Below, piece after piece: positions 23,128 through 40,606 of a stretch of DNA of 64,000 nucleotides. Every line of letters begins with the position of its first letter. The first letter of the stretch is position 1. The notes under the pieces are model-generated. The model did not search any database, was not told where the DNA came from, and saw only the letters and a list, made by a program, of their open reading frames with translations. The position numbers were made by a program, and so were the translations under genes. Origin of the DNA: a virus (Duplodnaviria > Caudoviricetes); IMG/VR virus record IMGVR_UViG_3300028380_000482, positions 1 to 64,000 of that record; one strand, given 5' to 3'.

Positions 23128-23205
23128 TGTACTTTTGTATCATGCCGACACTTGCATGTATAGAATAATTCTGTTAAGTAGAAAAATAGACAGTACAAAA
23201 GTACA
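23128..23205. promoter_or_regulatory. divergent promoter with 12-bp inverted operator repeats, upstream of the T4SS operon
   Basis: TGTACTTTTGTA (23128) ... TACAAAAGTACA (23194) flanking an AT-rich core. Confidence 0.65.
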
Positions 23206-23223
23206 GAATATAGAGATCACACA

Positions 23224-23457
23224 ATGAGCGAAGCCGCCAAATATTACGCCGTTTACTCACAGAGTCAAGTTGATTGCGGCTCTGGCATGTGGGAATGGCG
23301 GGCGGCAGACGGAAAGCTGGAGGTCTGCACGCACGTTTGCCCACAGTTCAAATGTAAGCACGTGGTCTACAGCGACCGGCTGGACTTGGGCGAAGTCACA
23401 GAATGGATCAGAACACTACGGGAGCCACAGCAAAGACGGAAAGTTGTAGGAGGATAG
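23224..23457 (+). CDS. hypothetical protein
   Basis: First ORF after the divergent promoter. Confidence 0.55.
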   Translation: MSEAAKYYAVYSQSQVDCGSGMWEWRAADGKLEVCTHVCPQFKCKHVVYSDRLDLGEVTEWIRTLREPQQRRKVVGG

Positions 23458-23461
23458 CACA

Positions 23462-23839
23462 ATGAATGAAGCATCGACAGAAATAAACGGCCAATCGAGC
23501 GTAAAATCTTTACTTGATCTGCCCGCGTTTCAGGAGATGAAAGAAAAGAAAGCTGAAGCAATGAATAAAGGGGAAGAGACCATCTGTTTGTCGATCTCTG
23601 GGACGATCTCTTCTCCTCCCGAGATCGATCGGCAGCAAGAAGAATCCGTGCGCTTGGCTGGGCTCGAAATCAAGGCGCGGCGCAAGGTGGAGCAGTTGCG
23701 GGTGGACCTTATTAAGGCGGAGCAGGAACACCGGGCGGTGAGCAGCAAGCAAGCGATTGTCGCAGCGAGACTCACGGAAATCTACCAAGCGCAGGCTGGA
23801 GTCAGTGCTGTGACGAAGCGAAAAAGGAACAAGAAGTGA
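23462..23839 (+). CDS. coiled-coil hypothetical protein
   Basis: GGAGGA RBS. Confidence 0.6.
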   Translation: MNEASTEINGQSSVKSLLDLPAFQEMKEKKAEAMNKGEETICLSISGTISSPPEIDRQQEESVRLAGLEIKARRKVEQLRVDLIKAEQEHRAVSSKQAIVAARLTEIYQAQAGVSAVTKRKRNKK

Positions 23840-24201
23840 CTTCACTCTCGCCTGAAGACTTCTTTGGTCCCCTCGCCGTCATTCATTGGATCGGGCTGTT
23901 TTGTTTTGTGGCCTATCTCATTATGCCGATGCTTTCGGCCTTTGCTGAGGGATGGCTAGAGCGGAGCGCGGAACGAAAGAAGGAGCGAGAATATCAACGG
24001 GCGGCAGCGGAACGAGACCAGGAAGTGGCGGCGATACAAAGGAAGATGGAGCATGAAACGCTGAATAAGCAGTTAGATGCCCTCTATCGGAAAGAGAGAG
24101 AAGAGCAGCGCGGGATTAAGCCCTACGGCACGCTCGAAGAAGAACACCGGGCGTGGGAGGAATTTAATCGGCGGGAGGAGGAGAGGCGATGCCATTCCTA
24201 A
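23836..24201 (+). CDS. single-TM coiled-coil protein
   Basis: N-terminal hydrophobic helix, then Glu/Arg-rich coil; overlaps the trbE start. Confidence 0.6.
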   Translation: MTSLSPEDFFGPLAVIHWIGLFCFVAYLIMPMLSAFAEGWLERSAERKKEREYQRAAAERDQEVAAIQRKMEHETLNKQLDALYRKEREEQRGIKPYGTLEEEHRAWEEFNRREEERRCHS

Positions 24202-26684
24202 TTGGCCGGGCCGACTTTCCCGAAGAGAAATCCGCCTTCACACCAGGACTGCCACAGTACCTCGGCTACGAAGCCTTTGTCGGTCCCTCCATCATTCAAA
24301 TGAAGGATGGCGCCCTGCTCGTGTGTTTCGAATACGTCGGCCCGGATCAGGAATTGAACGAACACACACGGCGGGCGTGGGAAGCAGATTTACTGGCCCG
24401 CGATCTCCAATTGACGGGTGGGTGGATGTTCGAAGGTCATACCGTCATTGCCCATACCACTGTCCCGCCTCGGTCTCATTTCTGTCCTGACGCCGTGAGT
24501 GCCTTAGTCTACGAAGCCCGTGCTAAGCAGTACGCGCAAGAAAAGAAATACGTCAAGAAACGGGATGTCATGGTGCTCACGTATCTGCCTCCAGACGACG
24601 TGAAGCAAACCGTCAGTGACTTCTTTCTCGAAGAACGCACACGCACCAAACAATGGTCTCGTGTCCAATTGCTGGAACAGTACGTGCGCGAGGTGATGAA
24701 GCTGGTTGACGCGCTGGATCGCTTCCTCACGCTACGACGGTTGAGCGAGGCCGAGACGCTGCACTTTCTCCACTTCTGTGTGACCGGCGAGGATCGGGCG
24801 GTGGGTGTGCCGGAAGACGGGGGCGATCTCGATTATGCGATTGGTACGGTCGAACTCGCGCCGCATGACGGGACGGTCAACAACGAACTTCACACGCAAG
24901 CGATTGGCATTATCGGTTGGCCGGGGGATGGCACCAAGTCGCAGATGTTTGACCCGGTGTTTCAGTTAGGTATTCCGCTGCGCTTTCAGCAACGAGAAAT
25001 CTTCATTCCGACGGCGATTGCGGTGAAGTTGTTGGAGCGGCGGCGGAACTGGACGAATCAGTTGAACGACTACAACCCGTTCCGGTTGTGGTGGACGGCG
25101 GCGCAACCCAGTGGTGGTGCCGACCCAAATAACAAAAACGTGGTGCGATTCAATAAGGCAGCGGCGGAGAAAGCCAATAGTATCGAGGATGAGATTGCTT
25201 TGATTGAGAGCGGCGAGGTGGTTGCGGGCTATTACACCGGCTGCGTGATTCTGCACGATACCGACCCGGATCTACTGGCGCAGAACACGGCTCTGGTAGC
25301 GGCGCGGATTCGCAGCCTCGGATTCTCGCCGATTATTGAGAAAGATAATTTGGCTGACGCGATCGGCGGAAGCTGGCCGGGGCACGGCTCACGCAATATT
25401 CGCTTACACATTCTCAATAACCGGCAGTTCTCCCGGCTGTGGAGTACGAGCAATCCGTGGGAAGGAGAAGAGACTGCGCCGTGTCCGTTCTTCCCAGAGG
25501 GGAGCGGACCGCTCCTCCTGACGACGACGGCGGGCAAGCAAATCCATCGAGCGAACATTCATGCACACGATCTCGGGAATTTCCTCAATATTGGAATCGC
25601 GGGGCGCGGTAAGACGTTCCTGAACGGCCAAATTGCACTAGCTTACCGGCAGTATCCTAACAGCCAGATTTTTATACTGGACCGGGACGCGGCGCTGCTG
25701 CCCCCGACACTCCTGTGTGGCGGTGAATTCTTCGACGCGGATGCGCTGAGCTATGCCCCGTTCGGACAGATTCACAAAGATGCAGAGTTTGCCTGGGCGC
25801 TTACCTTTATTGAATTGCTCGCACAATTGCGGCACTGCAAGCTGTCGCCGACCGTCCAGGGCGACATTGCCAAAGCGTTGGTCTCATTGCGAGAGATGCC
25901 CGCCGAACGGCGGACCATGAGCCAGTTTTTGTGGCAGCTCCAGCCACGGGGAGGAGATCGGATTAAGGACGCGCTCAGTTTCTATACCCTGGAGAATCCG
26001 GGCGCGATTCTCGATGGTAAACCAGGCCCGGAACACACGGCCAGTTGGCAAACGTATGACATGCTCCGGCTCATTGGTGCGGGCGAGATGATTAGTACCC
26101 CGGTCATTCACTACCTGTTACACATGATGGACCGCTATGCCGATGGCCGCATGATTCTCAAAATTATTGAAGAAGGCTGGCAGGTCGCCGGGAACAAGTT
26201 GATTCAATCGAGCACCGAAGAGGACAGTGCCAACAACCGCAAACGGAACATTGCGACCGGGCTCGTACTGCATTCGCCTGCGAACCTCGATGCCTTCGAG
26301 CGGCGCAATCTCCTGACGATCAACATGGGCAGTCTCTTTCTCTTGCCCAATGAGAAGGCGATGACCACAGGTGAGAACGGTGAGATGGAGCACTATCTGA
26401 CGCTCGGTCTCACCCCCCGACATTGTCAGGCGTTAGCGCAAGAGATGGTGCCACGGCGTCACTATATGGAAGTAAAAGGTGATCTCGCGCGTGTCTTCGA
26501 ATTCGAGCCGACGGAGTGGGAACGGGCAATTCTTGGTGTGAACGGCAGGTCGCATAAAGAAGAGTTGTTGGAACTGAAGAAGCAATACGGGCCAGAGATG
26601 CCAGGTGTGTGGTTACGGAAACATAAGCACGAAGCGTTAGCGCAGGAATGGGAAACGCGGTTCAAGCAGAAGGAGGCAGCATGA
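24189..26684 (+). CDS. trbE: T4SS ATPase VirB4/TrbE
   Basis: MKDGALL..EYVGPD, FLHFCVTG, GSWPGHG.RNIR, Walker A GIAGRGKT, IIEEGW, NRKRN; 831 aa. Confidence 0.9.
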   Translation: MPFLIGRADFPEEKSAFTPGLPQYLGYEAFVGPSIIQMKDGALLVCFEYVGPDQELNEHTRRAWEADLLARDLQLTGGWMFEGHTVIAHTTVPPRSHFCPDAVSALVYEARAKQYAQEKKYVKKRDVMVLTYLPPDDVKQTVSDFFLEERTRTKQWSRVQLLEQYVREVMKLVDALDRFLTLRRLSEAETLHFLHFCVTGEDRAVGVPEDGGDLDYAIGTVELAPHDGTVNNELHTQAIGIIGWPGDGTKSQMFDPVFQLGIPLRFQQREIFIPTAIAVKLLERRRNWTNQLNDYNPFRLWWTAAQPSGGADPNNKNVVRFNKAAAEKANSIEDEIALIESGEVVAGYYTGCVILHDTDPDLLAQNTALVAARIRSLGFSPIIEKDNLADAIGGSWPGHGSRNIRLHILNNRQFSRLWSTSNPWEGEETAPCPFFPEGSGPLLLTTTAGKQIHRANIHAHDLGNFLNIGIAGRGKTFLNGQIALAYRQYPNSQIFILDRDAALLPPTLLCGGEFFDADALSYAPFGQIHKDAEFAWALTFIELLAQLRHCKLSPTVQGDIAKALVSLREMPAERRTMSQFLWQLQPRGGDRIKDALSFYTLENPGAILDGKPGPEHTASWQTYDMLRLIGAGEMISTPVIHYLLHMMDRYADGRMILKIIEEGWQVAGNKLIQSSTEEDSANNRKRNIATGLVLHSPANLDAFERRNLLTINMGSLFLLPNEKAMTTGENGEMEHYLTLGLTPRHCQALAQEMVPRRHYMEVKGDLARVFEFEPTEWERAILGVNGRSHKEELLELKKQYGPEMPGVWLRKHKHEALAQEWETRFKQKEAA

Positions 26685-26884
26685 AACAAAAAATTATTTT
26701 CGGTTTGTGTATGTGGTGGTTCTTCATGTTGGGGGACAATCCGCAGACGGTCGGCTCGTTCTGGAATCAGGATCAATGTGAGGGGATTCGGGTGTGGATA
26801 CAAGAAAAGCAAGCTAATTGGACCATTAGAACGCCTACCTCTCCGTGCTGGTCTGATCAACAAGTACCGCCTGAGAAAGAATAA
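26681..26884 (+). CDS. small exported hypothetical protein
   Basis: AGGAGG RBS; VGSFWNQDQCE motif. Confidence 0.55.
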   Translation: MKQKIIFGLCMWWFFMLGDNPQTVGSFWNQDQCEGIRVWIQEKQANWTIRTPTSPCWSDQQVPPEKE

Positions 26885-26897
26885 GGAGGCAGTATAC

Positions 26898-27803: not shown

Positions 27804-27810
27804 TACCCCA

Positions 27811-28050
27811 ATGGCCCTAGGAGGCCACAAGAGGAGGGTACACGTGTCGTACATTATTCTCACATTAGTCTTCATCGGCGGGGCGTTCATTGGCAGTATT
27901 GGGACACTCACTTTAAGTGACTCTTGTCACGAACTGGTTGCGATTGAGAAAGCCCGGGATGCGAAAGAACAAGAACGCGAGGCGAAACTGAAGCAGTTTT
28001 TCGGCGAATCTTCGCCAGAAAAACCAGAATTTAAGGATCGTGGCCTGTAA
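27811..28050 (+). CDS. small membrane protein at the TrbK/entry-exclusion position
   Basis: One TM plus short charged tail, between trbJ and trbL. Confidence 0.5.
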   Translation: MALGGHKRRVHVSYIILTLVFIGGAFIGSIGTLTLSDSCHELVAIEKARDAKEQEREAKLKQFFGESSPEKPEFKDRGL

Positions 28051-29051
28051 TGGAACCCGCACTACTTAGCCAAATTACGCAGCTCTTTAAGAACGGGGCG
28101 CTCGTCTGGGGACCAACCATCTCAGGCATTGTCGAGCCGTGGTACTTCGACACTTTACTGATTGCCTGGTTCTTCGCTTTTTTTGGAATCGCTTTCAATA
28201 TTGGGGTAGACTTTTTTCCTGCGCTGTTCTTATTCTTTATTCGAAACGGGTTCTTTTTGAGTATGATCCGGTTTGGGCCTGAGTGGATTAACCAACTGTT
28301 TGATAGCATCAAGAATCTTGGGTATCGGATGGGGATGCCAAACTTGGACCCCTCGGCGATTGCGGCAATGGGACCTGTCGTGGCCGATCCGATTATGAAA
28401 AGCCTCGCAGACCAGGGGATGTTATCGTATCTCTTTAGCCCTTCGACCTACATTTTTAGTTTTGCTGGTGTCGCCGTCGAGTTCGCGTTTCTCGCGCTCG
28501 CCTTTATGACGATGGCAACTCTGATTCTCAGTTATGTATTGACGGCGGGCTGTCCCTTCTTTTTTGTCTTCGCGGCGATCCCGTTCACACGCGGGATGAC
28601 GATGGGCTATGTCCGACTCGTCTTCGGGACTCTCGCTACATTATTTACCATTCTCCTCATTACGGCGAACGTCGTTGAGGTCGGGGAGTTGATACAGGTA
28701 TGGGAACGAGCGGTTTTTCTCAATCCTGCGGTGACACTCACTGCAAGTGATTACGCGCTGCCGCTTGGCGTAGCGATCGTACTGACCTGCATGTTCATTT
28801 GGTTGCCGATCAAGGTCGGGCGGGAGATGTACGGATTCGTACCGGAGTGGAGTGGCGGGCGGGCGGCAGGGTTTGCGCTTGGCGGGGTTCGTGCCGCCGG
28901 TGGTGCGGCACAGGACGCCTTTCAGAAGATGACGGGCGGCGGCGGGAGTCACAGCAGTTCAGGCGGCGGAGGAAGCCCAAGCCGCACTGGTGGGGGCGGT
29001 AGTCCCAAAGGGACACTCGGGACAACGCCGTGGGGGTTTGCAAAACCATGA
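28050..29051 (+). CDS. trbL: TrbL/VirB6 polytopic membrane protein
   Basis: WINQLFDSIKNLG...DPSAIAAMG, several TMs, Gly/Ser-rich tail. Confidence 0.82.
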   Translation: MEPALLSQITQLFKNGALVWGPTISGIVEPWYFDTLLIAWFFAFFGIAFNIGVDFFPALFLFFIRNGFFLSMIRFGPEWINQLFDSIKNLGYRMGMPNLDPSAIAAMGPVVADPIMKSLADQGMLSYLFSPSTYIFSFAGVAVEFAFLALAFMTMATLILSYVLTAGCPFFFVFAAIPFTRGMTMGYVRLVFGTLATLFTILLITANVVEVGELIQVWERAVFLNPAVTLTASDYALPLGVAIVLTCMFIWLPIKVGREMYGFVPEWSGGRAAGFALGGVRAAGGAAQDAFQKMTGGGGSHSSSGGGGSPSRTGGGGSPKGTLGTTPWGFAKP

Positions 29052-29070: not shown

Positions 29071-29295
29071 ATGAGTGGTACAAGCTACCGATCGCGCTTT
29101 TCACAGAGCGCATGGGGGTCAATACCCGATGACGACGATGACGGTGGCGGGGGGCAGCGGTGGATGTCCTGGCCTCCGCCTCCCAAGCCCCGGCTGGGAG
29201 TGAAGGCCCCGTTGCAAATCCCCTTTCGAGAAACGCTGAGCGAGAAATTCGAACAAGCGTTCGACCGGGCATTCTCTAGAAGGAAAAACAAATGA
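29071..29295 (+). CDS. hypothetical low-complexity protein
   Basis: AGGAGG RBS. Confidence 0.45.
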   Translation: MSGTSYRSRFSQSAWGSIPDDDDDGGGGQRWMSWPPPPKPRLGVKAPLQIPFRETLSEKFEQAFDRAFSRRKNK

Positions 29296-29717
29296 TTAAC
29301 TCCGGCCAATGGCACGAGTGCCCGGTCTGTGGTGCAACGGTACGGCTTGGGTTTGAGACCTGTCGGCGCGAACGACAGACGATGGTCGTCACGTATGAAA
29401 ACTCTCTTGGTTGGCTGAGCTGGACGGTCGGACGACAACGCAACTTTGAAGTGCAAACATTGTGTGTGTGGTGCGGGGAGCAGGAGGACGCGGCAATCGC
29501 TGCACGGAAGCAGCAGAGGCTCCTCCTGCTTGGTGGGTACGGAGTGGGTTTTTACGGCTGGTTCAAGTACGGAATGGTAGGGTTGTATGGGGCAGGGGGG
29601 GCGGTGGTTGCGTTCATACTTGCGAGCTGGTTGTGGCGGCGACATCGCGCAGGACGAATGCAGGAACAGAAGCAACTCTATCTAGAGATAATGGACCGGG
29701 AGAGGAGGGCGGAATGA
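29292..29717 (+). CDS. zinc-finger membrane protein
   Basis: CPVC...CVWC and two C-terminal TMs; coupled at both ends. Confidence 0.55.
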   Translation: MINSGQWHECPVCGATVRLGFETCRRERQTMVVTYENSLGWLSWTVGRQRNFEVQTLCVWCGEQEDAAIAARKQQRLLLLGGYGVGFYGWFKYGMVGLYGAGGAVVAFILASWLWRRHRAGRMQEQKQLYLEIMDRERRAE

Positions 29718-30472
29718 ATAGCATCTTATCTTGGTTTCGACGATCAAAACCGAATCCAGTTGACCTGAGCACGCCACACGTTCGCGCGCAAGTCAAACTA
29801 GATTCCAAGGAACGGAACCATCAACGACTTGTTCGGGCATGGCAGACCGCAGCGGCGGGAGCGTTCCTTCTGGCGTGCGGATCAGGCTACGGCAACTACT
29901 GGCAGTTGAACCGAGCGGAGGTCGAGTATCAGTTTACTGTCTACAGTAATACCTATCAGCCGGTCCCATTTCTTGTTCGCCGGGCCAGTGTCATTTCAAA
30001 CCTCGACCCGCAGAAGCAAGGCATCGTGGGCATGGTACTGAATCGTTATATCGAGTTATGGCGGCTCCGTATCATGGAAGGCAACTTTCTGATTCGCCAG
30101 TTGAACCAAGCGAGGAGCATGATTGCTGGACCTGCGCTTGGGAAGTTCGACGCCTGGTACAAAGATACCGATCCGGTGAACAAGAGCGAACGAGAGAAAG
30201 TGGTTGTGCGGGTGAGCGAATCCCCACCGATGCCAGTATCACAGATGCCGTCAGAGAATACATGGGAAGCGGCATGGACAGAGGAACTCCAAGATCGCAA
30301 TGGCGTGGTGCTAGGAACACAAAATTGCACTGGTCATTTTCGCATTAAGTATGATCCGAAGTTTGCCGATCCGCTCAATGTATTTGGCGCGGTCGTGATC
30401 GATCAGACGGAACAATGTGGGAAAGGAGCACCCCAGGGGAGGGTACAAGGGGGGAATTATGCCTCTAAGTAA
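29714..30472 (+). CDS. trbF: TrbF/VirB8
   Basis: RAWQ + TM; SENTWEAAWTEE...G.F.I....NVFGAVV. Confidence 0.8.
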   Translation: MNSILSWFRRSKPNPVDLSTPHVRAQVKLDSKERNHQRLVRAWQTAAAGAFLLACGSGYGNYWQLNRAEVEYQFTVYSNTYQPVPFLVRRASVISNLDPQKQGIVGMVLNRYIELWRLRIMEGNFLIRQLNQARSMIAGPALGKFDAWYKDTDPVNKSEREKVVVRVSESPPMPVSQMPSENTWEAAWTEELQDRNGVVLGTQNCTGHFRIKYDPKFADPLNVFGAVVIDQTEQCGKGAPQGRVQGGNYASK

Positions 30473-31388
30473 AGATACGAAATACGGACTATTTTTGGTT
30501 CTTTTCTTAGGGGGGTGTGCGGTTCCCCCGGTCAGACAGACGCCAGTTGACGTATCAACGCCACACCTGGCAGCCACGCCAGCAGCACCTCCGGCTATCG
30601 CAGGGAGTGTGATACCGGCAGTGCAACTGCATCCTCAGATGGCCGAGGCTCCCATTCCTAGGGCGCGCATTACTCCCGCCGTTGATGTAATTGGTAAGAC
30701 CGCAGCAACCCTGATTTTCGATCCTGATCGGCAATATCCGCTCGTCTGCCCCATGTGGCGACAGGTGATTGTCAGGCTTCTTCCTGGCGAGATTCTGCGG
30801 GATTATGGGGCACCAAACGGAGAAGAGTGGATTATTCAACCCTCCTCTTCGTCGGTGAACGGAGAAGAGGTGGTAGTGTTCTTCATCAAAAGCACGCCGC
30901 TCGCTCCGGTGACTGACTTCACGGTAACGACCGACAAGAACATCTACATGATGCAGCTTTTACCCAGTGGTAAGGGTGTGAATCGCAATGTGCGGCTCGT
31001 GCGGTTCCGCGATCCAAACGCCGAACTCCTCCGAGAAGAAGCCCGGATTGCTAAAGAAGAACGACGGCGACAACGAGCGCTAGAGCCCAAGATACCGACG
31101 CTGAACACAGTGACAGCGCGCACGTATCAGGTCAGCGGGCCTGCGGTGGTGTGGCATCCGGTGAGTGTGACAGGAGACGATGTGCATACCTTTATTAAGC
31201 TGCCATCTGAGACCGGGGCAGAGTTGCCGATCCTCACAGTCATGCGAGACGGCGAGTATGAGCAACCAAATTATCGGACAGTACGGGACACAGATGGGCG
31301 GGTTGTGCTGGTAGTTGATGGGCCGGTACGACAGCAAGCGAAGCTGACCGGCATGGATGGTGAAGTGCTGATTTCAGGAGGGAATTAA
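30459..31388 (+). CDS. trbG: TrbG/VirB9 core-complex lipoprotein
   Basis: Lipobox LGGC; LLPGE, VTTDKNIY, WHPVSV..D..HTFIKLP, PNYR, LVVD. Confidence 0.85.
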   Translation: MPLSKDTKYGLFLVLFLGGCAVPPVRQTPVDVSTPHLAATPAAPPAIAGSVIPAVQLHPQMAEAPIPRARITPAVDVIGKTAATLIFDPDRQYPLVCPMWRQVIVRLLPGEILRDYGAPNGEEWIIQPSSSSVNGEEVVVFFIKSTPLAPVTDFTVTTDKNIYMMQLLPSGKGVNRNVRLVRFRDPNAELLREEARIAKEERRRQRALEPKIPTLNTVTARTYQVSGPAVVWHPVSVTGDDVHTFIKLPSETGAELPILTVMRDGEYEQPNYRTVRDTDGRVVLVVDGPVRQQAKLTGMDGEVLISGGN

Positions 31389-31389: not shown

Positions 31390-31839
31390 ATGGACATGTC
31401 ATTATTCAGCTTTTTGTGTGCCTGGGCGCTAATTGTGCTGACTATTATCGGAGTCTTTATTTTAGGGGCTGTTGTATTCGGAATTGCGGCGTGGTTAGAG
31501 CAACAAGGGCCGATCTTGCGGCTTAAATTTTGGGCGTATGTTGCGACCAAACCACGACTAGAAAAGGCGGTTCCACTGCTCTTTTCCGGGCTAGGAATTG
31601 GCGTCCTTTTTACTCTACCTGCGAGCTTCTTCTGGCTGCTAACTGTTGTCGCATTTCCTGAGGGATTACTTACCGAACCCGCGCCTTCTGTTCCTAACTC
31701 GGAGGTTGCCTTAGCAATCACCCTTGTTCTTATGAGCATTGTCTCTGTGTGTGCGATTGGCGTTGTCAGTCCAAAGCCAGAAGCGAAAGAATCGGCAGAG
31801 AAAGACATGCAATCTAGTCAGTTAGTGAGGGGGAGCTAA
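31390..31839 (+). CDS. three-TM membrane protein
   Basis: Hydrophobic segments; inserted between trbG and trbI. Confidence 0.6.
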   Translation: MDMSLFSFLCAWALIVLTIIGVFILGAVVFGIAAWLEQQGPILRLKFWAYVATKPRLEKAVPLLFSGLGIGVLFTLPASFFWLLTVVAFPEGLLTEPAPSVPNSEVALAITLVLMSIVSVCAIGVVSPKPEAKESAEKDMQSSQLVRGS

Positions 31840-33023
31840 TGGCTGGGCCAGCAATCAATAATCCTACTCCACAACCCAGGAAACGGGGCGCGTCACCTCG
31901 CTTCTTTAAGCTCGCAGTGGGTCTCCTGGTAGCGATGGCAGTCGGGCTTTTTTGGGTGCGGTGGACCGATATACGGCATCGGGGGGGAGAGGCTTCCGCC
32001 TCTCCAACGTTACTCAATCGAGCACAAACTGACCTGACCTTACCGGATAAGAAAAAAGAAGAAGTCAAAACACCGCCTGTACAAAACAAGGAACCGAAGA
32101 CACAAGACAAGCACGAAGCGCGGCAGCCTAGGAAAAAAACTAAGTTTGAAGAGATGCAGGAAGAGAAGCGGTTAGCGGCGATTTGGGGGAATCCAATCTT
32201 GGGACGAAACACCCCAAAGGAGGGTGCAAGGGACGGACAAGAACGTAACAACGCGCAACACGCGGCCCGCTCGCAAGAGCCATATAATGACCGAAACACT
32301 TTGGAAGTGGGGTCAACAGGCAGCAATGGGCGCGGCAATCGCGCAGACGCAAGCCTCTGGAACACCAGCTTTGACAAGCGCGGGCGGGGGCAAGTTGGGG
32401 TGCTGCAAGCACCGCTCTCGCCGTTCACGGTATGGCCGGGGTGGAAGATTCCGGTCAAGTTAGTGGATGGAATAGATACGGATACGCCCGGTCAGATTAG
32501 CGCAGTAGTGGTGGAAGATGTGATGGACTCGGCAACCGGAATGCACAAGTTAGCACCTGCGGGCACGCGCATTCTCGGCTCATACGACGACCAAATTCAG
32601 CGGAGTCAGGAGCGATTACCAAATGCTTGGCATACGCTGATCTTGCCGAATGGGCGACCAATGGCACTCGGCGGAATGCCGGGGGCCGACCGGCGTGGGG
32701 TGTCAGGCATCCCGATTGAGACTGACAATCACACATGGGAAATCGCAGGCCAAGCCTTGCTAATGACGGTCACAGGGGCAGCGGGTCAGATGGCGACACG
32801 AGGTGGGTACAGCGGCAACGACGTTGACCCAGGCGATGCGTTACAGATGGAAGCGGGGCGCGAGATTCGCCGATCGGGGCGGCAGGTAGCGGGGCGCGGG
32901 TATCGGCAGCCGACCGGGAAAGCGGAGAGTGGGGAAGTCTTCTTTGTGGTTGTGACGGCCCCATTGGATTTTAAGCAGCCTTATCAAGAAGAGACTGACG
33001 TTGCATTTGGAGAAGAGGAATGA
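31839..33023 (+). CDS. trbI: TrbI/VirB10
   Basis: SPFTV.PG..IP..L..GIDTDTPGQISA.V..DV.DS.TG..L.P.GTRILG.YD, DNH. Confidence 0.92.
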   Translation: MAGPAINNPTPQPRKRGASPRFFKLAVGLLVAMAVGLFWVRWTDIRHRGGEASASPTLLNRAQTDLTLPDKKKEEVKTPPVQNKEPKTQDKHEARQPRKKTKFEEMQEEKRLAAIWGNPILGRNTPKEGARDGQERNNAQHAARSQEPYNDRNTLEVGSTGSNGRGNRADASLWNTSFDKRGRGQVGVLQAPLSPFTVWPGWKIPVKLVDGIDTDTPGQISAVVVEDVMDSATGMHKLAPAGTRILGSYDDQIQRSQERLPNAWHTLILPNGRPMALGGMPGADRRGVSGIPIETDNHTWEIAGQALLMTVTGAAGQMATRGGYSGNDVDPGDALQMEAGREIRRSGRQVAGRGYRQPTGKAESGEVFFVVVTAPLDFKQPYQEETDVAFGEEE

Positions 33024-33544
33024 CCTTCTTTCTTCGCATAATCGGTGCGTTCTGTCTGCTCGTGCTACTGAGCGGGTCGGCAATCAACTCGTTCGGGTAT
33101 CACGTCAACATTACGAACTCGCTCCCTCGCGGTATCTATAAGATAGCCCACGGTCCAGTAGTTCGGGGAGCTTTAGTAGTTGAGTGTTTGTTGCCGCAAC
33201 TCTCCAAATTGGGCAAAGATCGAGAATGGATCGGGCGCGGCTCGTGTCCAAGCGGCACTATGCCGATCCTCAAGCGCGTAGTCGGAGTGCCGGGTGATAC
33301 GGTGACGGCGACACGGGACTACATCCAGATAAATAGTTTCATTCTGCTTAATACGGCGTCTCTGTTTCTGGACTCACAGGGGCGGGAAATCCCCCGTGTC
33401 GGAGATCACACCTACACGTTACAGCCCGGACAAGTGTTATTGTTGGCCGACAATCCGCAGTCGTGGGATAGTCGGTACATGGGGTCAGTGGACATGACAA
33501 CGATCCTCGCAACGGCGGAGCCGGTCTGGTTATGGGAGGACTAA
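33020..33544 (+). CDS. traF: conjugal pilin-processing S26 peptidase TraF
   Basis: NITNSLPRGIY, G.CPSG..PILKRVVGVPGD, SWDSRYMG. Confidence 0.9.
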   Translation: MTFFLRIIGAFCLLVLLSGSAINSFGYHVNITNSLPRGIYKIAHGPVVRGALVVECLLPQLSKLGKDREWIGRGSCPSGTMPILKRVVGVPGDTVTATRDYIQINSFILLNTASLFLDSQGREIPRVGDHTYTLQPGQVLLLADNPQSWDSRYMGSVDMTTILATAEPVWLWED

Positions 33545-33734: not shown

Positions 33735-34703
33735 GTGAACACGAATCGTCGCCAACAAGAGCGCATTCTTGACGATTACGAGACCGGGCTGGGGCCGGAG
33801 ATTCGGGCTGCGATCCGCAAACCGGGAGTCACGGGGATCAAGGTTGCGGGCGAAGACGGGAAGCTCTTTGTCAAAGAACACAGCACGAAATGGGTCGATA
33901 CGTTGCATGTGGTTCCGTTAGCGGTCCGGCGATCGACGCTCAATATGATCTCTTCCGAGTTGCAGAAGTCATTCAACGAAGAACAACCAAGCCTCTCCGG
34001 CGAGCTGCCGTTGACCGGAGATCGGGTGCAGGCGTGGTGCCCACCGATCGCAGACTACAGTCTCGTGATTCGCCGCCACAGCTCACAAGTCTTTTCATTG
34101 GAAGACTATGTTGACGCGCAGATCATGACCCAACAGCAGGCAAATACACTGCGGCGGTACGTACATGAGCATAAGAACATGGTGTGGTGTGGCGCAGTCG
34201 ATAGTGGCAAAACCACTGCCTGTAACGCCTGTCTAGCAGAAATCGAGGGAACCGAGCACGTCTTTATTGTTGAGGATACCAAGGAACTAAAGTTTCTCGG
34301 TGCAAACGTCACGCGACTCCAGACCGCCAATTCAGTCGCCACATTACAGAGTCTTGCGCGTGATTCGTTGCGTGGCGATTACGACCGCTTAGTGATCGGC
34401 GAGACACGCGGTGCGGAGGGGGTTGAGGTCATCAAGATATGGAACGCTGGGCGGCGGGGTGGATTTACCACGGTGCACGCGGAGAGTGCGGCGGGTGCGT
34501 TTGTGCGGTTTGCGATGTTCTGCCAGGAGGCAAGGTTGCCGCCTTTGTGGATGCAGATCGAGGCAGCGATTGACGTTGTGATACATATCGCCATGACGCA
34601 AGAAGGACGGAAAATTACCGAGATCAGGGAGGTGCAGCATGAAGACATAGACATACCAATTAAGTTCAAGCGGCAAGAAGAGATGTACACAACAACACAT
34701 TAA
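33735..34703 (+). CDS. trbB: T4SS ATPase TrbB/VirB11
   Basis: PSLSGELP..G.R, GAVDSGKTT, VEDTKEL, LR...DRLVIGETRG.E, TVHA. Confidence 0.92.
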   Translation: MNTNRRQQERILDDYETGLGPEIRAAIRKPGVTGIKVAGEDGKLFVKEHSTKWVDTLHVVPLAVRRSTLNMISSELQKSFNEEQPSLSGELPLTGDRVQAWCPPIADYSLVIRRHSSQVFSLEDYVDAQIMTQQQANTLRRYVHEHKNMVWCGAVDSGKTTACNACLAEIEGTEHVFIVEDTKELKFLGANVTRLQTANSVATLQSLARDSLRGDYDRLVIGETRGAEGVEVIKIWNAGRRGGFTTVHAESAAGAFVRFAMFCQEARLPPLWMQIEAAIDVVIHIAMTQEGRKITEIREVQHEDIDIPIKFKRQEEMYTTTH

Positions 34704-34715: not shown

Positions 34716-35051
34716 ATGGACGGTATGGTGCGTAGGGGACGGTTGATGTGGCTGGTTTTAATTGCGGTCGCGGCGATGGTCGGACTAGACGCCGGTGGGG
34801 CGATGGCCTCAGGAACAAACACGCTGGCGGAGATGAGTGCGGGCGTGTTAGCGGTTGGTGACACGTTACAGAGCACGGAAATCCTGGGGAGCATTGGATT
34901 CTGGCTGGTGGCGATTGGGGCGGTGGGGTTGCTGCGTGGGGATCTTGGTGCGGGGTGGGTGGGGTTCTTTATTCTGTTTATTGTCGTTGGCGTGCTGTTC
35001 AATGGACAGAATATCGTGGAGGCAATCGGCTGGTCGGCGGCGGTGGTATAG
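34716..35051 (+). CDS. trbC: TrbC/VirB2 major pilin
   Basis: Signal peptide (AMA/S) plus two hydrophobic helices; follows trbB. Confidence 0.7.
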   Translation: MDGMVRRGRLMWLVLIAVAAMVGLDAGGAMASGTNTLAEMSAGVLAVGDTLQSTEILGSIGFWLVAIGAVGLLRGDLGAGWVGFFILFIVVGVLFNGQNIVEAIGWSAAVV

Positions 35052-35056
35052 CTGCT

Positions 35057-35090: not shown

Positions 35091-35105
35091 CAACCTGGAG
35101 TAACT

Positions 35106-35474
35106 ATGAACGATTCATCATACCAAGACACTCCGATTATTCTACCCTTAGCGCAGGGTGTGTTGAGTCCTATCAAGCGGTGTGGAGCAGAACGCGCCCC
35201 TGCCGATTTGGGGTTTCTCCTTGCCTTTCTCATGTTCATGACAGCCATGTATGGACAGTGGAAAGCGCTCTACTTTCTTATTTTCCCGATCGCGTGGCAC
35301 ATCGCCTGGATGATCGTTTTCAGTCGAGACCCGCAGTATTGGGCGATCATGATGCGACAATGTGTGTGGTATCCGTGGCCGGAGTGGGTGCAAGCATGGC
35401 CGGGCCTTGGGGCAAAGCCAGTGAAGATCGAGGCAAGCGTGCCATTCAGGGGTGAGGCGGCGTATTCGGCATAA
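35106..35474 (+). CDS. trbD: TrbD/VirB3
   Basis: P....GAER + two TMs + RDPQ signature. Confidence 0.8.
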   Translation: MNDSSYQDTPIILPLAQGVLSPIKRCGAERAPADLGFLLAFLMFMTAMYGQWKALYFLIFPIAWHIAWMIVFSRDPQYWAIMMRQCVWYPWPEWVQAWPGLGAKPVKIEASVPFRGEAAYSA

Positions 35475-35623
35475 GAAAGTGTCGGACTTAAAATCGAGAG
35501 TTTTCATGCGGACAGAAATTTCGATTTTAACCCAGAGACGCCAGCGGTTTGGGGATTGTAGACGGCGATTGCATAATCTGGAAATAAGAATCAGCATTAA
35601 CGCGGAGTTACGGGGAGGGATGG

Positions 35624-35818
35624 ATGTCTACCGGGGTAAAAATAGGGATTGGACTGTTGACGCTTTTGTTGACGGGGTGCGCACAGAGTACGAGTTACCC
35701 ACGGAACACACGAAGCGGGTACTACGGGACGACTCGGAGCCCCACGTATGAAGTAACCCGCCAGATACAAGAGGTAGCGAGAATGCGGCGGGCATGGGAG
35801 CAGCTACGGAGATACTGA
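35624..35818 (+). CDS. small lipoprotein (possible VirB7/TrbH or exclusion protein)
   Basis: Lipobox LLTGC. Confidence 0.6.
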   Translation: MSTGVKIGIGLLTLLLTGCAQSTSYPRNTRSGYYGTTRSPTYEVTRQIQEVARMRRAWEQLRRY

Positions 35819-35819
35819 A

Positions 35820-36221
35820 ATGCCGTTTCGCAAAGCGGATTACGGCCCCGAGTGGGACCGGATTAAGAAACGGATACTTGAGCGCGAGGGGTATCGGTGT
35901 CGCATGTGTGGAGTGAAGCGGTACTCAGTCGGGGTGCGGCATAAGGATGGCAGATTCACGTTACACATTGAAGCAGCGAGTTACGAAGAAGCCCGCCGCT
36001 ACGCCAGAGACGGCGGGGGATTGATCGTTGTCAAGCTCGCCGTTGCTCACTTAAATCATGACTTAAGTAATCACGAACAATTCTTGACGGCCTTATGCGA
36101 TTATCACCACCTAAAACACGATCAGCCACAGCACACGGAGAATTCCAAGAAGACACGGGCCGCGAAACGGGAGCGGATACAATCGGAGTTATGGGATGAG
36201 CAATACGGTGTACTCATTTAG
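35820..36221 (+). CDS. phage HNH-like protein
   Basis: W..IKKRILEREGYRCRMCG...LAVAHLNHD..N...L.ALCDYHHLKHD. Confidence 0.8.
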   Translation: MPFRKADYGPEWDRIKKRILEREGYRCRMCGVKRYSVGVRHKDGRFTLHIEAASYEEARRYARDGGGLIVVKLAVAHLNHDLSNHEQFLTALCDYHHLKHDQPQHTENSKKTRAAKRERIQSELWDEQYGVLI

Positions 36222-36585
36222 GTTAAGCGACGAGATGGAAGTACGGGCGGAAGTACAGGCCAAACAGCGAGGGCTGAAGAGCGGGCACGCGCTCATGAAA
36301 GAGATCGTCGAGAACTATTTTAATGGAGAGGGAGACAAGCGCCAGAAGAACATGGACCTTTTGTTGGCCGAGATTGCAGGGTTGAAGGGTGAGGTAGGCG
36401 AGCTGACGTATGAAGTGATGCGGACGCGGGCGATGGTGGCGCGGGTGATTGATCCGAAGGGCGGAGAGCAAGGGGAGAAGGGAAAGCTGTTGATGGAGGT
36501 GGCGGGGAAGGATGTGGCAGCGTACGTGAACGGAGAGAATGGAGGAGCAGCATGTCAGACAAACGGACGAGAGAAGATTACATAG
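36196..36585 (+). CDS. RHH protein, TrwA/MobC-like relaxosome accessory candidate
   Basis: VYSFRLSDE...A..RG.....LMKEIVENYF followed by a helical oligomerisation segment. Confidence 0.6.
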   Translation: MSNTVYSFRLSDEMEVRAEVQAKQRGLKSGHALMKEIVENYFNGEGDKRQKNMDLLLAEIAGLKGEVGELTYEVMRTRAMVARVIDPKGGEQGEKGKLLMEVAGKDVAAYVNGENGGAACQTNGREKIT

Positions 36586-36986
36586 CAGAACACGGGACGC
36601 TAGCGGCAGTAATCGGGCAAATGATTACGGACCTGAGCGCGGGCGAGATTTCTCAGGAAGAAGCACGGAGACGCTTTCTCGACTACACCATAGAATACGA
36701 GTCGCTTCCACAGCGCGAGGGCTTCATTCAAACGTCCTCGATTGTGTCAGGACGGACCGGCAAGCCGCTGGTGGATTACCGATGGGATGACAAGCGGGTT
36801 CAGTGGACACCGGAAGAGGCACAGGCTCATGCGTTAGTGATTCTCGCGTGTGCTGAGGCGGCGATCATGGACGCGGCAGTGGTGGAGTTTTTGAAGGTGC
36901 GGATGGATCTTGATTGGGAAAAAGCGGCAGCGTTCGTGCATGACTTGCGGAACTTCAGAGAGGACATGAAAAAGGAATGGCAGTAA
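36552..36986 (+). CDS. hypothetical phage protein
   Basis: SIVSGRTGKPLV...QWTPEEA..HAL..L..AEAA..DA. Confidence 0.7.
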   Translation: MSDKRTREDYIAEHGTLAAVIGQMITDLSAGEISQEEARRRFLDYTIEYESLPQREGFIQTSSIVSGRTGKPLVDYRWDDKRVQWTPEEAQAHALVILACAEAAIMDAAVVEFLKVRMDLDWEKAAAFVHDLRNFREDMKKEWQ

Positions 36987-37186
36987 CCCCCGCTCGCCTT
37001 ACGGCGGTCCTTCGAGTGGCGAACTTTGTCCGCCGACTCTCAGACCCGCACGCTCGGCTTCGCTACGTTCACACCCTCTGTTGGGGTGACGCTGCTTAAA
37101 CTACCAGCGGCAGTCCTTCAGTTAGTGACCTCCGGCCACATAACTTCAGACCTGCACGCTTAGGCCCGTATCGAAAGGAATTCAAA

Positions 37187-37438
37187 ATGTGGACTCGACT
37201 GACGGACGAGATGGTCCTGACCGAGATTGTGTTGCTGCACGGGTGGGCGACGGCGTATACCGTGCAGCAGTTGGTTGAGGATCGGCTTGGTCGCAGAGTG
37301 AGGATGGGAGAGATTGGCAGGCGAGTACGGCGACTGTTTGCTGAACGGAAGATCAAAGTCATCGAGCACCGGGGCGGGGCGCCGTGGCGGTACGAGCCGT
37401 GGGGCTATGCGCTGGTGCGGGATGAATGCCACCCCTGA
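37187..37438 (+). CDS. winged-helix-like small protein
   Basis: AAGGA RBS; shares LTD(E/D)(M/L)V start motif with 38460-38804. Confidence 0.55.
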   Translation: MWTRLTDEMVLTEIVLLHGWATAYTVQQLVEDRLGRRVRMGEIGRRVRRLFAERKIKVIEHRGGAPWRYEPWGYALVRDECHP

Positions 37439-37465
37439 GAAGGGTGCAAGCGGAAGGGGTAGCCA

Positions 37466-37933: not shown

Positions 37934-37936
37934 ATC

Positions 37937-38230
37937 ATGCCACTGGGGAACCGCTGTTCACGCTGCGGGCGGGGGCTTGGGCCGGGGGCACAAGAGGCGC
38001 TCTTTGGGGGCCACGAGATTTGCTACGCGTGTTTGAATACCCCCGCCTATGAAGAGATGCTCAGTGAATTGCCAACGGACGAGAGAGCGGACTGGGACCG
38101 ACTGTCGTTATGGGAGAAGGGGTTTATTCGCTCGATTCGGGAGCAATACGAAGAGCGGGGGACGTTGAGCGATTTGCAGGCAGAGAAGGTCGAACAGGTA
38201 TGGGAACGGTGGCAACGGAGACGGAGATAG
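37937..38230 (+). CDS. zinc-finger hypothetical protein
   Basis: CSRC..CYAC; LSLWEKGFI.SI..Q....LSD.Q motif. Confidence 0.65.
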   Translation: MPLGNRCSRCGRGLGPGAQEALFGGHEICYACLNTPAYEEMLSELPTDERADWDRLSLWEKGFIRSIREQYEERGTLSDLQAEKVEQVWERWQRRRR

Positions 38231-38232
38231 GC

Positions 38233-38472
38233 GTGCCTTGGAAATACTTTTTGCTTGTGTTGCCGGTGTGGGGGATGTTCACTGCGGCGGTTGGGATGGT
38301 GTTTCATGATTTGGGGTACAAGGAAGGGCTGGTTGTTTGTGAGCATCCGAAGCAAAGTAAACTACAGGAATGGCGGTATGCAGGTGACTGTGTTTGCCTT
38401 GACCCGACCGGCAATCTTGTGTCTTCATCGTGCGAAGCAAAGGGGAGTGGGGGGATCGCATGTCAAAAATAG
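38233..38472 (+). CDS. small membrane protein
   Basis: TM followed by a Cys-rich tail. Confidence 0.45.
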   Translation: MPWKYFLLVLPVWGMFTAAVGMVFHDLGYKEGLVVCEHPKQSKLQEWRYAGDCVCLDPTGNLVSSSCEAKGSGGIACQK

Positions 38473-38804
38473 GGAGTTGGGTTTTCGACAAGATATTCGG
38501 ACGGAAGCTCCTGACCGACGATCTGGTGTTTGCGGTCATTGCCGAGATGACCCCCAGGCCCGCGCATGCAGAAGATGTAGGAGAAATCATCGCGAACCGC
38601 GTAGGGCGGGACATCAGCAAGCGGGTGCTACTCACACACTTTGATAATCTCTTAGAGGCTGGGCGGATTGTCGCGGTGTGGGGTGGGGAGGGGCAGGAAG
38701 GGATACACAGACGCAAGTACGCCCCGTTCTTTGCGGTGTTACGGCCCGAACTCCGCCCTCCTGGGAAAGGCGTGCTGCTGACACCGGCCAGGGAGAAGAA
38801 GTGA
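38460..38804 (+). CDS. winged-helix-like protein
   Basis: Coupled to the coupling-protein gene; wHTH-like pattern. Confidence 0.55.
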   Translation: MSKIGSWVFDKIFGRKLLTDDLVFAVIAEMTPRPAHAEDVGEIIANRVGRDISKRVLLTHFDNLLEAGRIVAVWGGEGQEGIHRRKYAPFFAVLRPELRPPGKGVLLTPAREKK

Positions 38805-40606
38805 CAAAGACAAACGCGCTTCTCTGGAAGCTCGAACAACTCAAGACGTGGTCTCAAATCCAAGCCTCCGCCATGCAGTATTGGTTCCGGTGGGGCATTG
38901 TTGTGTGGCTGGTCAGCGCTGTGATTATTCTCGCGATGGGACTGACGATCGAGCCGGAACGGAAACAGAACGCAGTCACGTGGATAATCGCTAGCGTCGG
39001 TGCCAAGGCGCGGATCAAGACCATAGGACTCAAGACAGTCTGGTGGAAAGGCGACCCCTACGAGCCGCAGGTATTGGCAGAGTGGATGGACAAGCATGTG
39101 TACGGCGGGGCGCGGTTAAGTCAGTGGCTCGCGTGGGCGGCGGTGATGGGAATTGGACCAGTGAGTCTGATTGGCAGTATTGGGTTGTGGCGGGTACGAA
39201 AGAAGGCCGCGAAGGATGGAGAGCAACACATCAGAGGGGCGCAGATTCACACAGTTGAGGAGCTACAGAAACGAATAGGAATCAGCAGAGGAGACGGAGT
39301 TTTTGTTGGCGAGGTCTTCGTGCCGAGGGAGCAGATCAACGCCCACACCGGGATTGTCGGCTCGACTGGGGCAGGGAAATCGACGCTGATGGAGGGGATA
39401 CTTGAGCAGATCGAAGCGAGGGGAGAGCGGGTGGCGCTGGTTGATGTGGAGGGAACGTTTACGGCGAAGTTTTTCAATCCCAAGCGCGGGGATGTGATTC
39501 TGAATCCCTTGGACCGACGCTGGCAAGGGTTTGACATCAGCGCCGAGTGCGAACGGTTAGAAGACTGCGAAGCGATTGCGACGAGCCTGTTTCCGATTAC
39601 CGGACGGATGCGCGGGACGACCGGAGAGTATTTTGCTCGCGTCGGGCGGCGCGTGATCCGGGATGTGCTCAATGTGATGCGACAGCAGGGCAATGCCGAC
39701 CTGCGTGTGATTCCCGAACTCCTCCGGCATCCGAAAGCCCTGCTGGAGATGCTCGGAGACACGGAGGCAGCGGCGGAGCTGGGGTACAAAGACAGCAGAG
39801 AACGGCGGCAATTTCTTTCGGGCATTCGCACGGCGACAGACAGCTTTCGGTATCTCGATCCACAGCCAGGCGACTTGGCGAGAGACACTGTCCCGTGGAG
39901 TGCCCGGCAATGGGTCACACAAGGGGAAGGCTGGTGCTTCTTTACGGTGAGTGAATCGCAAAAAGCAGCGGTGTTGCCGTTTATTGGCTTAGCGCTTGAC
40001 CTCCTCGGACGGCAATTGTTAGAACAACCGCTTCGTCCTGAGAAACTCCTGTGGCTCTATTTTGACGAACTCGGAGACTTGCCCGCGCTAGCGACGTTGC
40101 CACGGATTGCCACACGAGTACGGAAGCGCGGTGGGGCGATCGTTTACTCGATCCCGGACCGGAGCAAGTTAGAATCGGTGTACGGAGAACACGAGACTGA
40201 TTCGATTCTGAACGCGGCGGCGGTGCGCGTATATATGCAAACTAATGACCCCAAGACCCAGGAGTGGGTTGCGGCCAGTATCGGGCGGCATGATGTGGCA
40301 CGGCAGGTCGAGAGCCACACGATGGGGAGTAAAGATGGACGGGATGCGGTGCATCTCAATCCCAACCTGAGCCGAGAAGAATACGCGATCACGCCCTCAC
40401 AGGCCGGGCAGATTCCGGTCGGGCGTGCCTACTTGAAGGTGGGCGCCTTTGGCACGGCGTATATTCGGATTCCCCTGGTGGAGCGGGAGGAGCAGGAGTC
40501 CGGCTTTCTGCCTCGCGCTGAAGCCGAAGAACTAAGAGAGGCTGAACAAGAGGAAGCGGCAGATTGGCAAGCGGACGCGCTGGCGGATGTCAGGCGAGCG
40601 ATTTAA
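38801..40606 (+). CDS. trwB: type IV coupling protein, TrwB/TraD family
   Basis: Two N-terminal TMs; HIRGA; GSTGAGKS; ILNPLDRR; WSARQWV; WLYFDELGDL; RKRGG; L..VYG. Confidence 0.92.
   Translation: MTKTNALLWKLEQLKTWSQIQASAMQYWFRWGIVVWLVSAVIILAMGLTIEPERKQNAVTWIIASVGAKARIKTIGLKTVWWKGDPYEPQVLAEWMDKHVYGGARLSQWLAWAAVMGIGPVSLIGSIGLWRVRKKAAKDGEQHIRGAQIHTVEELQKRIGISRGDGVFVGEVFVPREQINAHTGIVGSTGAGKSTLMEGILEQIEARGERVALVDVEGTFTAKFFNPKRGDVILNPLDRRWQGFDISAECERLEDCEAIATSLFPITGRMRGTTGEYFARVGRRVIRDVLNVMRQQGNADLRVIPELLRHPKALLEMLGDTEAAAELGYKDSRERRQFLSGIRTATDSFRYLDPQPGDLARDTVPWSARQWVTQGEGWCFFTVSESQKAAVLPFIGLALDLLGRQLLEQPLRPEKLLWLYFDELGDLPALATLPRIATRVRKRGGAIVYSIPDRSKLESVYGEHETDSILNAAAVRVYMQTNDPKTQEWVAASIGRHDVARQVESHTMGSKDGRDAVHLNPNLSREEYAITPSQAGQIPVGRAYLKVGAFGTAYIRIPLVEREEQESGFLPRAEAEELREAEQEEAADWQADALADVRRAI

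Follow-up and report, generated by a model that had tools for sequence, protein, structure and literature searches.

A predicted secretion operon in a tailed-phage genome

The IMG/VR virus record IMGVR_UViG_3300028380_000482 is one molecule of 107,563 bp, the first 64 kb (64,000 nucleotides) of which are referred to here as the window, the stretch of DNA that was analyzed. Between 22.6 and 41.9 kb, the window contains a co-oriented, densely packed module of about 30 consecutive intact open reading frames (ORFs) with Shine-Dalgarno sequences. Judged from its predicted proteins, this block is a complete but very divergent P-type (Trb/VirB-like) type IV secretion system (T4SS) with a coupling protein (T4CP). 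The curated Pfam cut-offs were used as the threshold for family support. The first-pass annotation of the window had listed a Trb/VirB component set and a TrwB-type coupling protein in this block; the ORFs are intact where it had placed them and mostly find support in Pfam, whereas TrbJ and TrbC are weaker and TrbD lies at 35106–35474 instead of 35452–35751. The components are listed below, where handles such as L023 denote short contigs with related operons.

22586..23124, minus strand: two small ribbon-helix-helix (RHH)-like genes (88 and 90 aa) with an N-terminal beta-strand/helix pattern, read away from the T4SS operon
23224..24201, plus strand: three leader ORFs (77, 125 and 121 aa) with Shine-Dalgarno sequences and no family match
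24189..26684, plus strand: VirB4/TrbE ATPase (PF03135, 28.2 bits, cut-off 21; PF27097; Walker A GIAGRGKT)
26681..26884, plus strand: 67-aa ORF, 36–45% identical to the ORFs at the same position after VirB4 in L034 and L035
26898..27803, plus strand: TrbJ/VirB5-like protein (TIGR02780, E = 2.8e-4, 20.4 bits against a cut-off of 100.55)
27844..28050, plus strand: 68-aa membrane ORF with one transmembrane (TM) segment, assigned to TrbK by position only
28050..29051, plus strand: TrbL/VirB6 polytopic membrane protein (PF04610, 8.3e-8, above cut-off; several TM segments)
29071..29717, plus strand: 74-aa ORF and 141-aa Zn-ribbon/TM protein, with CxxC pairs and a TM segment visible
29714..30472, plus strand: VirB8/TrbF (PF04335, 3.5e-9, above cut-off)
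30459..31388, plus strand: VirB9/TrbG (CagX) of the outer-membrane core (PF03524, 9.3e-16, above cut-off)
31390..31839, plus strand: 149-aa protein in the TrbH position, three predicted TM segments, no family match
31839..33023, plus strand: VirB10/TrbI (PF03743, 8.5e-36, above cut-off)
33020..33544, plus strand: TraF-like S26 peptidase (PF10502, 3.1e-14; boxes NSLP, KRVVGVPGD and SWDSRYMG with Ser and Lys)
33735..34703, plus strand: VirB11/TrbB ATPase (PF00437, 1e-27; Walker A GAVDSGKT, Walker B VFIVED)
34725..35051, plus strand: candidate VirB2/TrbC pilin with a signal peptide and two hydrophobic helices, 31–37% identical to genes at the same position in L028, L033 and L035
35106..35474, plus strand: VirB3/TrbD-like protein (PF05101, E = 0.019; hhalign against Pfam-annotated VirB3, E = 0.0065)
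35820..36221, plus strand: HNH nuclease with CxxC and HH motifs, 38–39% identical to the gene at the same position in L033 and L035
36196..36585, plus strand: RHH-like DNA-binding protein in a TrwA/TraY-like position, with an N-terminal strand-helix-helix; shares 32% identity with the ORF that follows HNH in L035
36552..38804, plus strand: seven small lineage-specific ORFs with no homologues on the relatives' contigs, filling ~2.6 kb between HNH and T4CP
36987–37186: largest non-coding gap of the block (200 bp), containing a CACCC-N7-GGGTG palindrome at 37072
38801..40606, plus strand: TrwB/TraD-type T4CP (PF10412, 4.4e-69; PF12696; Walker A GSTGAGKS; two N-terminal TM segments)
40617..41919, plus strand: four small ORFs that end the operon, the 104-aa one secreted

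Walker A motifs are kept in the three ATPases (VirB4, VirB11 and the T4CP), and the S26 boxes are kept in TraF; peptidases of the latter type are the pilin maturation and cyclization enzymes of P-type systems. The best plasmid matches of VirB4 are the TrbE proteins of Rhizobiaceae plasmids (Agrobacterium, Rhizobium, Sinorhizobium), which are 28–29% identical and are adjoined by trbJ. Among solved structures, the T4CP is best matched by R388 TrwB (PDB 1e9r, 3e-33, residues 143–549), and its PF10412 match takes in the all-alpha domain region of the profile. The TrbJ-like protein shares 24–38% identity with the gene that follows VirB4 in L023, L026, L028, L033, L034 and L035, the VirB3/TrbD-like protein is 43–53% identical in the relatives, and the T4CP is 39% identical to that of L033. 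No match of the candidate pilin to a hidden Markov model (HMM) was obtained, and an hhalign comparison of its family with TrbC was not significant. The divergent RHH-like genes at the left border are candidate regulators, the 88-aa one being 39% identical to an L035 gene in the same place and orientation upstream of VirB4. The three leader ORFs were called as genes in independent assemblies too, and the 121-aa one, which contains a TM segment, overlaps with the start of VirB4. From channel, pilus-maturation and coupling genes that are all encoded and conserved, we infer that the machine is probably functional.

The same record encodes TerL (phrog_675, 1e-72), a portal protein (phrog_113, 1e-55), an HK97-type major capsid protein (MCP; phrog_1005, 2e-83) that is 40–43% identical to those of cultured siphophages (Arthrobacter, Roseobacter), and an endolysin (phrog_181, 1.3e-24). 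Terminase, portal and capsid genes thus stand on one contig with the T4SS, as the first-pass reading of a virion-forming element had implied. Beyond the window, the late operon contains a 2005-aa tape measure protein, a minor tail protein, a head-morphogenesis protein and a phrog_290 match. The virion module spans ~50 kb and, with a tape measure protein of this size, fits a large phage. By its gene content the element is a tailed phage (Caudoviricetes) of siphovirus-like type that occurs in numerous metagenomes from soil and rhizosphere, virion formation being predicted only. The block lies, as first described, between phage replication genes on the left (primase-polymerase, helicases and a Pam3 gp34-like protein) and lysis and tail-fibre genes on the right (endolysin and fibres).

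Residence of the block and its relatives

Identical VirB4 genes were found on 17 contigs from at least 10 JGI/ENA/Logan samples, all of which share the left junction. The right junction was reproduced in at least four assemblies, traced by a look-up with the 104-aa gene next to the T4CP, and a 29-kb contig from a further sample joins the right flank to tail-fibre genes. Independent contigs from soil and rhizosphere tile positions 14.2–36.7, 32.3–45.9 and ~41.7–70.6 kb, and the contigs compared with the window were 98.5–100% identical. Since both junctions are tiled by independent assemblies, the contig is not the chimera against which the first-pass annotation had cautioned.

The composition of the block is that of the phage. 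Tetranucleotide correlations (r) between the block and other phage parts were 0.84–0.85, compared with 0.73–0.91 among phage parts, and its GC content is 54.9% versus 53–57% elsewhere in the phage. Searches for tyrosine and serine recombinases (PF00589, PF00239) gave no match, and direct repeats resembling att sites did not exceed chance at the block borders. The earlier statement that att repeats and an integrase are missing there holds; its companion, that no insertion sequence ends are visible, is to be amended by a TnpB gene 3.3 kb to the left (18696–19790). Uniform composition together with the lack of att sites and an integrase points to an old resident, and a recent insertion of an integrative, conjugative element (ICE) or plasmid, the other possibility named at first, does not fit. 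The block is an integral, long-resident part of the phage early arm, neither an artefact nor a recent insertion. The framing as a phage-plasmid lacks support: the ParA profile PF01656 matched only the P-loop of the T4CP, no plasmid Rep was recognized, and the ParB-like gene of the record belongs to the ParB-nuclease/methylase type known from phages.

All T4SS ORFs are intact across the variants examined. Differences among copies cluster at 20.0–22.25 kb and 39.0–39.25 kb. In variant L022, the T4CP gene carries 19 synonymous versus 9 nonsynonymous changes (pN/pS ~0.13); a mosaic patch at 39000–39250 (34 mismatches in 250 bp) covers the N-terminal membrane part of the protein, and this variant shows no other changes in the block.

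A VirB4 profile search over 1.84 billion representatives returned a small top group at 907–1480 bits plus fragments, then a gap, and then ordinary VirB4/TrbE proteins at ≤580 bits. Together with earlier matches, the top group makes up a clade of nine members, which received 100/100 support in a maximum-likelihood tree and is separated by a branch of 0.8. Within it, the phage VirB4, on a long branch of 0.93, forms a 100/99 subclade with L023, in which the T4SS adjoins TerL and portal genes, and L035. Phage-linked VirB4 copies therefore cluster, which answers the question raised at first reading, and they are nested among cellular- or plasmid-looking contexts. The nearest T4SS relatives, all known from short contigs, are 36–48% identical, and thirteen genes keep their order in the relatives at 24–53% identity. 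Their contexts are as follows:

L023: N6 methyltransferase, TerL, portal and MuF genes, directly followed by VirB4, TrbJ, TrbL and VirB8
L035: about 25 small ORFs on one strand, a phage-type polynucleotide kinase among them, next the same divergent 88-aa gene, then VirB4 to VirB11, VirB3, HNH and RHH genes
L034: VirB4 37% identical; T4SS operon with a sigma-70 region-4 (ECF-like) gene at 12311–12826 between TraF and VirB11
L028, L029 and L033: full operon including HNH and T4CP, with a PAS-HTH regulator and cellular genes beside it

BLASTP detected no similarity of the L023 TerL and portal proteins to the head genes of this phage. The 141-aa Zn-ribbon/TM protein is conserved in L023 and L034, and the conserved module exceeds the classical genes by a divergent RHH-like gene, the 67-aa ORF, the Zn-ribbon/TM protein, HNH and RHH. 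The small interleaved ORFs, first described as phage-like, are thus in several cases (HNH and the 141-aa, 67-aa and 88-aa genes) parts of the T4SS module. The operon of L028, L029 and L033 shares VirB4 to VirB11, pilin, VirB3, HNH and T4CP with the phage at 29–53% identity; it differs in having the PAS-HTH and cellular genes upstream, with no phage genes on these short contigs, and in having no counterpart of the small ORFs that occupy ~2.6 kb from HNH to T4CP.

L033 belongs to a Myxococcota metagenome-assembled genome (MAG), the only one among 401 genomes of its class with a member of the VirB4 clade. This MAG contains only a distant MCP homologue, and neither a prophage form nor a host was found in it or in the 401 genomes. 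Going by the T4SS phylogeny only, our guess is a diderm host, possibly Myxococcota-like.

Scans of IMG/VR with the VirB4 sequence and with the VirB4 profile found no relatives, so that the search for further viruses with this Trb set, as first proposed, gave no VirB4 relative there. A megablast search with the block gave no match among plasmids or phages. VirB4 homologues are absent from the cultured phages among 50,697 GenBank phage records and occur only in three uncultured faecal fragments; homologues of this T4CP are absent from all of these records. The three fragments (MT836029.1, MT836721.1 and MT838700.1) are unannotated 'Bacteriophage sp.' sequences of 5–16 kb from human faeces with VirB4 homologues of 25–28% identity, and they may represent wrongly labelled pieces of plasmids or ICEs, or further links between phages and T4SS. 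We found no precedent for a phage-borne T4SS in cultured phages or in the literature.

TerL relatives in IMG/VR are either one 4-kb fragment (85% identity) or distant phages of 41–47 kb. Five of the distant ones, two of them complete, have no VirB4, and so the wider TerL family does not share the T4SS as a trait. The 4-kb fragment (L004, IMGVR_UViG_3300002244_000100) has a portal 98% and a terminase 85% identical to those of the phage, so that two neighboring head genes are divided by a sharp mosaic boundary.

The Trb systems of Ti/Ri and rhizobial plasmids and the RP4 Tra2/TraF system have the same component set as the phage block (VirB4 to VirB11 types and the S26 peptidase TraF, with a TrbJ-like protein, a VirB3-like protein and a small candidate pilin on the phage side). 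The genes of the block, arranged as E-J-(K)-L-F-G-(H)-I, TraF, B-C-D, follow what we take to be a rotation of the trb order of Ti plasmids. Compared with these systems, that of the phage is only 28–29% identical in TrbE and falls into a separate VirB4 clade, its coupling protein is TrwB/TraD-like and not TraG-like, and it is phage-borne, with a conserved HNH gene and no relaxase found. R388 TrwB, which provides the closest solved structure, shares the Walker A motif and the two N-terminal TM segments with the phage T4CP. TrwB acts with the TrwC relaxase and TrwA. The phage match to it is distant, and only the RHH gene is a TrwA-like candidate, with no TrwC found. The system is thus a known machine of a divergent new clade that resides stably in a virus and comes without the relaxase that defines conjugative elements.

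Possible function of the secretion system

As a tentative first choice, held with somewhat less than even confidence, we suggest that the T4SS works as a contact-dependent channel with DNA as its likely substrate, that is, in DNA transfer started by a non-canonical initiator. The module would build an envelope-spanning channel and a pilus in an infected or carrier diderm host, and the coupling protein would feed the substrate through this channel to neighboring cells. The phage's own DNA would be the most likely substrate, which would provide a second route of spread that is independent of virions and receptors. DNA as the substrate is suggested by a TrwB-like T4CP with the all-alpha domain region and by HNH and RHH genes conserved beside it. 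With no canonical relaxase, DNA processing would be non-canonical and might involve HNH and RHH, perhaps with the UvrD-like helicase of the phage; the HNH protein, encoded just before the coupling protein, is a candidate DNA-processing enzyme. The processing site may lie in the 200-bp gap at 36987–37186 or at one of the CACCC-N7-GGGTG palindromes, the gap and the palindromes at 37072 and 37430 being candidates for an origin of transfer or an operator. Our preference for non-canonical DNA transfer rests on the conjugative nature of the closest systems and on the nuclease conserved within the operon. The fuller picture of a 'conjugative virus', a tailed-phage lineage that has long kept a mating apparatus and T4CP and passes its genome to neighbors by an HNH/RHH step, is possible but rather doubtful.

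Several points weigh against conjugative transfer of phage DNA. In a six-frame search of the whole 107.5 kb, no relaxase was found at E ≤ 1 with PF03432, PF08751, PF03389, PF07514, PF01076 or PF02486, the Pfam types for MOBP, MOBF, MOBQ, MOBH, MOBV and MOBT, with MOBC, MOBB and new types outside this search; nor does a 3-His motif occur anywhere in the 107.5 kb. Mating-pair formation (MPF) genes plus a T4CP without a relaxase found do not make a self-transmissible conjugative element by the usual definition, which comprises all three. The first-pass idea of spread by cell contact has support insofar as T4SS and virion genes share one genome; the lack of a relaxase of the six types searched speaks against simple conjugation. 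To our knowledge, HNH enzymes form no covalent 5' adduct such as pilots DNA in known conjugation. The pilin, VirB3 and TrbJ lack support at the HMM level, and the relatives of the MCP come from genomes of only 58–64 kb. Searches for integrase, resolvase and ParA recognized no genes for lysogeny or plasmid maintenance, which puts in doubt how long an infected cell could mate.

A T4SS that has a T4CP but no relaxase is usually read as a protein exporter, and this usual signature of protein secretion also counts against DNA transfer. The system could work without moving phage DNA, exporting proteins (toxins, anti-defence or priming factors) or forming only a pilus that gathers cells or biofilm. 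The unusually many Sec-exported proteins of the phage, among them a galactose-oxidase-like protein beside the operon and beta-helix and fibre proteins, would suit a phage that acts on the cell surface. However, no effector-like large protein or toxin-immunity pair is located in or beside the block, the T4CP is closest to conjugative TrwB, the TraF peptidase, like the best plasmid matches, is of a kind typical of conjugative P-type systems, and the conserved HNH and RHH genes beside the T4CP suggest a DNA step. On balance we regard export or adhesion without DNA transfer as a serious alternative, if an unlikely one.

The element might instead be a conjugative plasmid or ICE-like replicon with a prophage or defective phage, or a recent phage-plasmid cointegrate. 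Cointegrates of phage-plasmids and conjugative plasmids exist (P1/pMT1-type, E. coli p1002-1; bioRxiv 10.1101/2025.03.14.643293; 10.1101/2025.08.29.673033), and phage-plasmids are called non-conjugative except for these; they are recent fusions of recognizable plasmids, are expected to be impaired in packaging, and carry plasmid Rep, Par and relaxase genes. Like the element studied here, they put virion and mating-pair genes on one replicon. Also in favor of this explanation, L028, L029 and L033 adjoin cellular-type genes (L033 in a Myxococcota MAG), an array of 21 bp × 7.4 in the right flank could be iterons, and the genomes of the MCP relatives have ~60 kb. In contrast to the cointegrates, the phage element combines ancient divergence and uniform composition with an association that recurs in the VirB4 subclade, and no plasmid Rep, ParA, relaxase, integrase or att site was found in it. 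Both flanks consist of phage-type genes on the same strand, the record is treated as a virus of 93% completeness (IMG/VR, CheckV) with a virion module that fits a large phage, and relatives at 36–48% identity would make any fusion ancient. Conjugative megaplasmids and ICEs with or beside prophages are a further case in which phage and conjugation functions travel together. According to the two reports, these are separable elements of >300 kb (PMC12934698) and integrase-bearing phage-ICE tandems (PMC13651849); here, the T4SS lies inside the phage early arm and no recombinase was found. A plasmid or ICE carrying phage genes is, in our judgment, improbable.

A T4SS without present function, be it inert cargo or a relic in decay, as the long VirB4 branch (0.93) and several unrecognizable accessory components might indicate, is decidedly improbable. 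About 30 ORFs are intact with Shine-Dalgarno sequences, catalytic motifs are kept, the genes are near invariant in at least 10 samples, changes in the T4CP, the one polymorphic gene, are mostly synonymous, and 17.5 kb of dead weight would hardly last in a capsid-limited genome. A chimeric assembly of a phage and a conjugative element, which a metagenomic contig with homopolymer ends might bring to mind, is barely credible, given that the two junctions and the connection with the tail genes recur across independent assemblers and samples and that composition is uniform.

Conjugation and transfer by virions are commonly treated as mutually exclusive strategies. A 2025 review of plasmid mobility sets the two against each other point by point (PMC12282955), and phages are unmentioned in a 2025 review of T4SS (PMC12857230). 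Should the module work, a phage lineage that stably carries a full T4SS would stand beside them as a third kind of vehicle, and would be a natural system for T4SS entry of DNA or proteins without a known relaxase. Such a vehicle could bypass receptor specificity, widen the host range or pre-condition neighboring cells. Classifiers that decide between plasmid and virus would mislabel such elements.

Flanking regions and further features of the genome

The regions around the block and at the contig ends contain the following features:

2849..22602, plus strand: left flank, early/replication region, with the same junction in independent assemblies
18696–19790: IS605-type TnpB (OrfB_IS605 and Cas12f1-like TNB)
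42177..53281, plus strand: right flank with an HTH_17 protein, a helicase, HNH, an N6 methylase, a tandem array (21 bp × 7.4) and small regulators
46522–46677: perfect tandem array of 21 bp × 7.4, non-coding, directly before a ribosome-binding site and ATG at 46693
53443..64000, minus strand: start of the late lysis/tail-fibre/virion operon (endolysin, fibre, beta-helix and structural proteins), which continues to ~105 kb of the genome
Window 1–942, minus strand: ParB-like gene that runs off the left contig end and matches the N-terminal part of phrog_498
Genome 105412–107563: right contig end with a small ORF, followed by a methyltransferase whose match is to the C-terminal part of phrog_498

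IMG/VR labels the record a virus and 'linear', and CheckV estimates its completeness at 93%. Both ends of the 107,563-bp contig are poly-C. The two phrog_498 parts that adjoin across the ends suggest a circular or circularly permuted genome that is broken at the homopolymer. The ParB-like gene and the methyltransferase were tried as one gene across the contig ends, and no fusion resulted at any poly-C length. Another sample yielded the same genome in two pieces, contigs of 44.9 kb and 62.5 kb that add up to 107.4 kb. The 21-bp array is also a point at which the assembly of another sample breaks. The window contains no tRNA genes.

The left flank encodes two SNF2 helicases, the Pam3 gp34-like protein, a primase-polymerase, a UvrD helicase, a C5 methylase and TnpB, and, on the side of the block and on the same strand as the T4SS, a secreted galactose-oxidase-like protein. 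Some assemblies call a 42-aa Y1 transposase remnant with TnpB, and the variants L036 and ERZ27251975 have a second TnpB-like gene near 49.5 kb that is missing from this genome. The variable segment at 20000–22250 accounts for ~200 of the 247 mismatches of variant L017; it contains small ORFs on the minus strand and the Sec-exported galactose/glyoxal-oxidase-like gene at 21055–22602, with indels. The latter region looks like a swapped or fast-evolving secreted enzyme adjoining the T4SS operon.

On the right, a strong promoter-like site at 42134–42163 begins the next unit with the HTH_17 protein. Each unit of the 21-bp array contains the palindrome CACCCC-N5-AGGGTG, and single CACCC-N7-GGGTG copies occur within the T4SS block at 32210, 37072, 37430 and 41147, the motif having 11 matches versus 0.03 expected. 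The array and the single copies are candidates for iterons or operators of one DNA-binding protein. Single-sequence AlphaFold models of a 295-aa ORF (8409–9296, pLDDT 32) and a 144-aa ORF (36552–36986, pLDDT 51) were not used.

Classical Sec signal peptides and Cys-rich sequences are shared by many large late-operon proteins of beta-helix, Ig-like and fibre-like type (55538–59053 on the minus strand; genome 65449–74476 on the minus strand) and by several early-arm proteins (47243–48728 and 21055–22602, both on the plus strand). Such signal peptides are odd for virion parts that are assembled in the cytoplasm.

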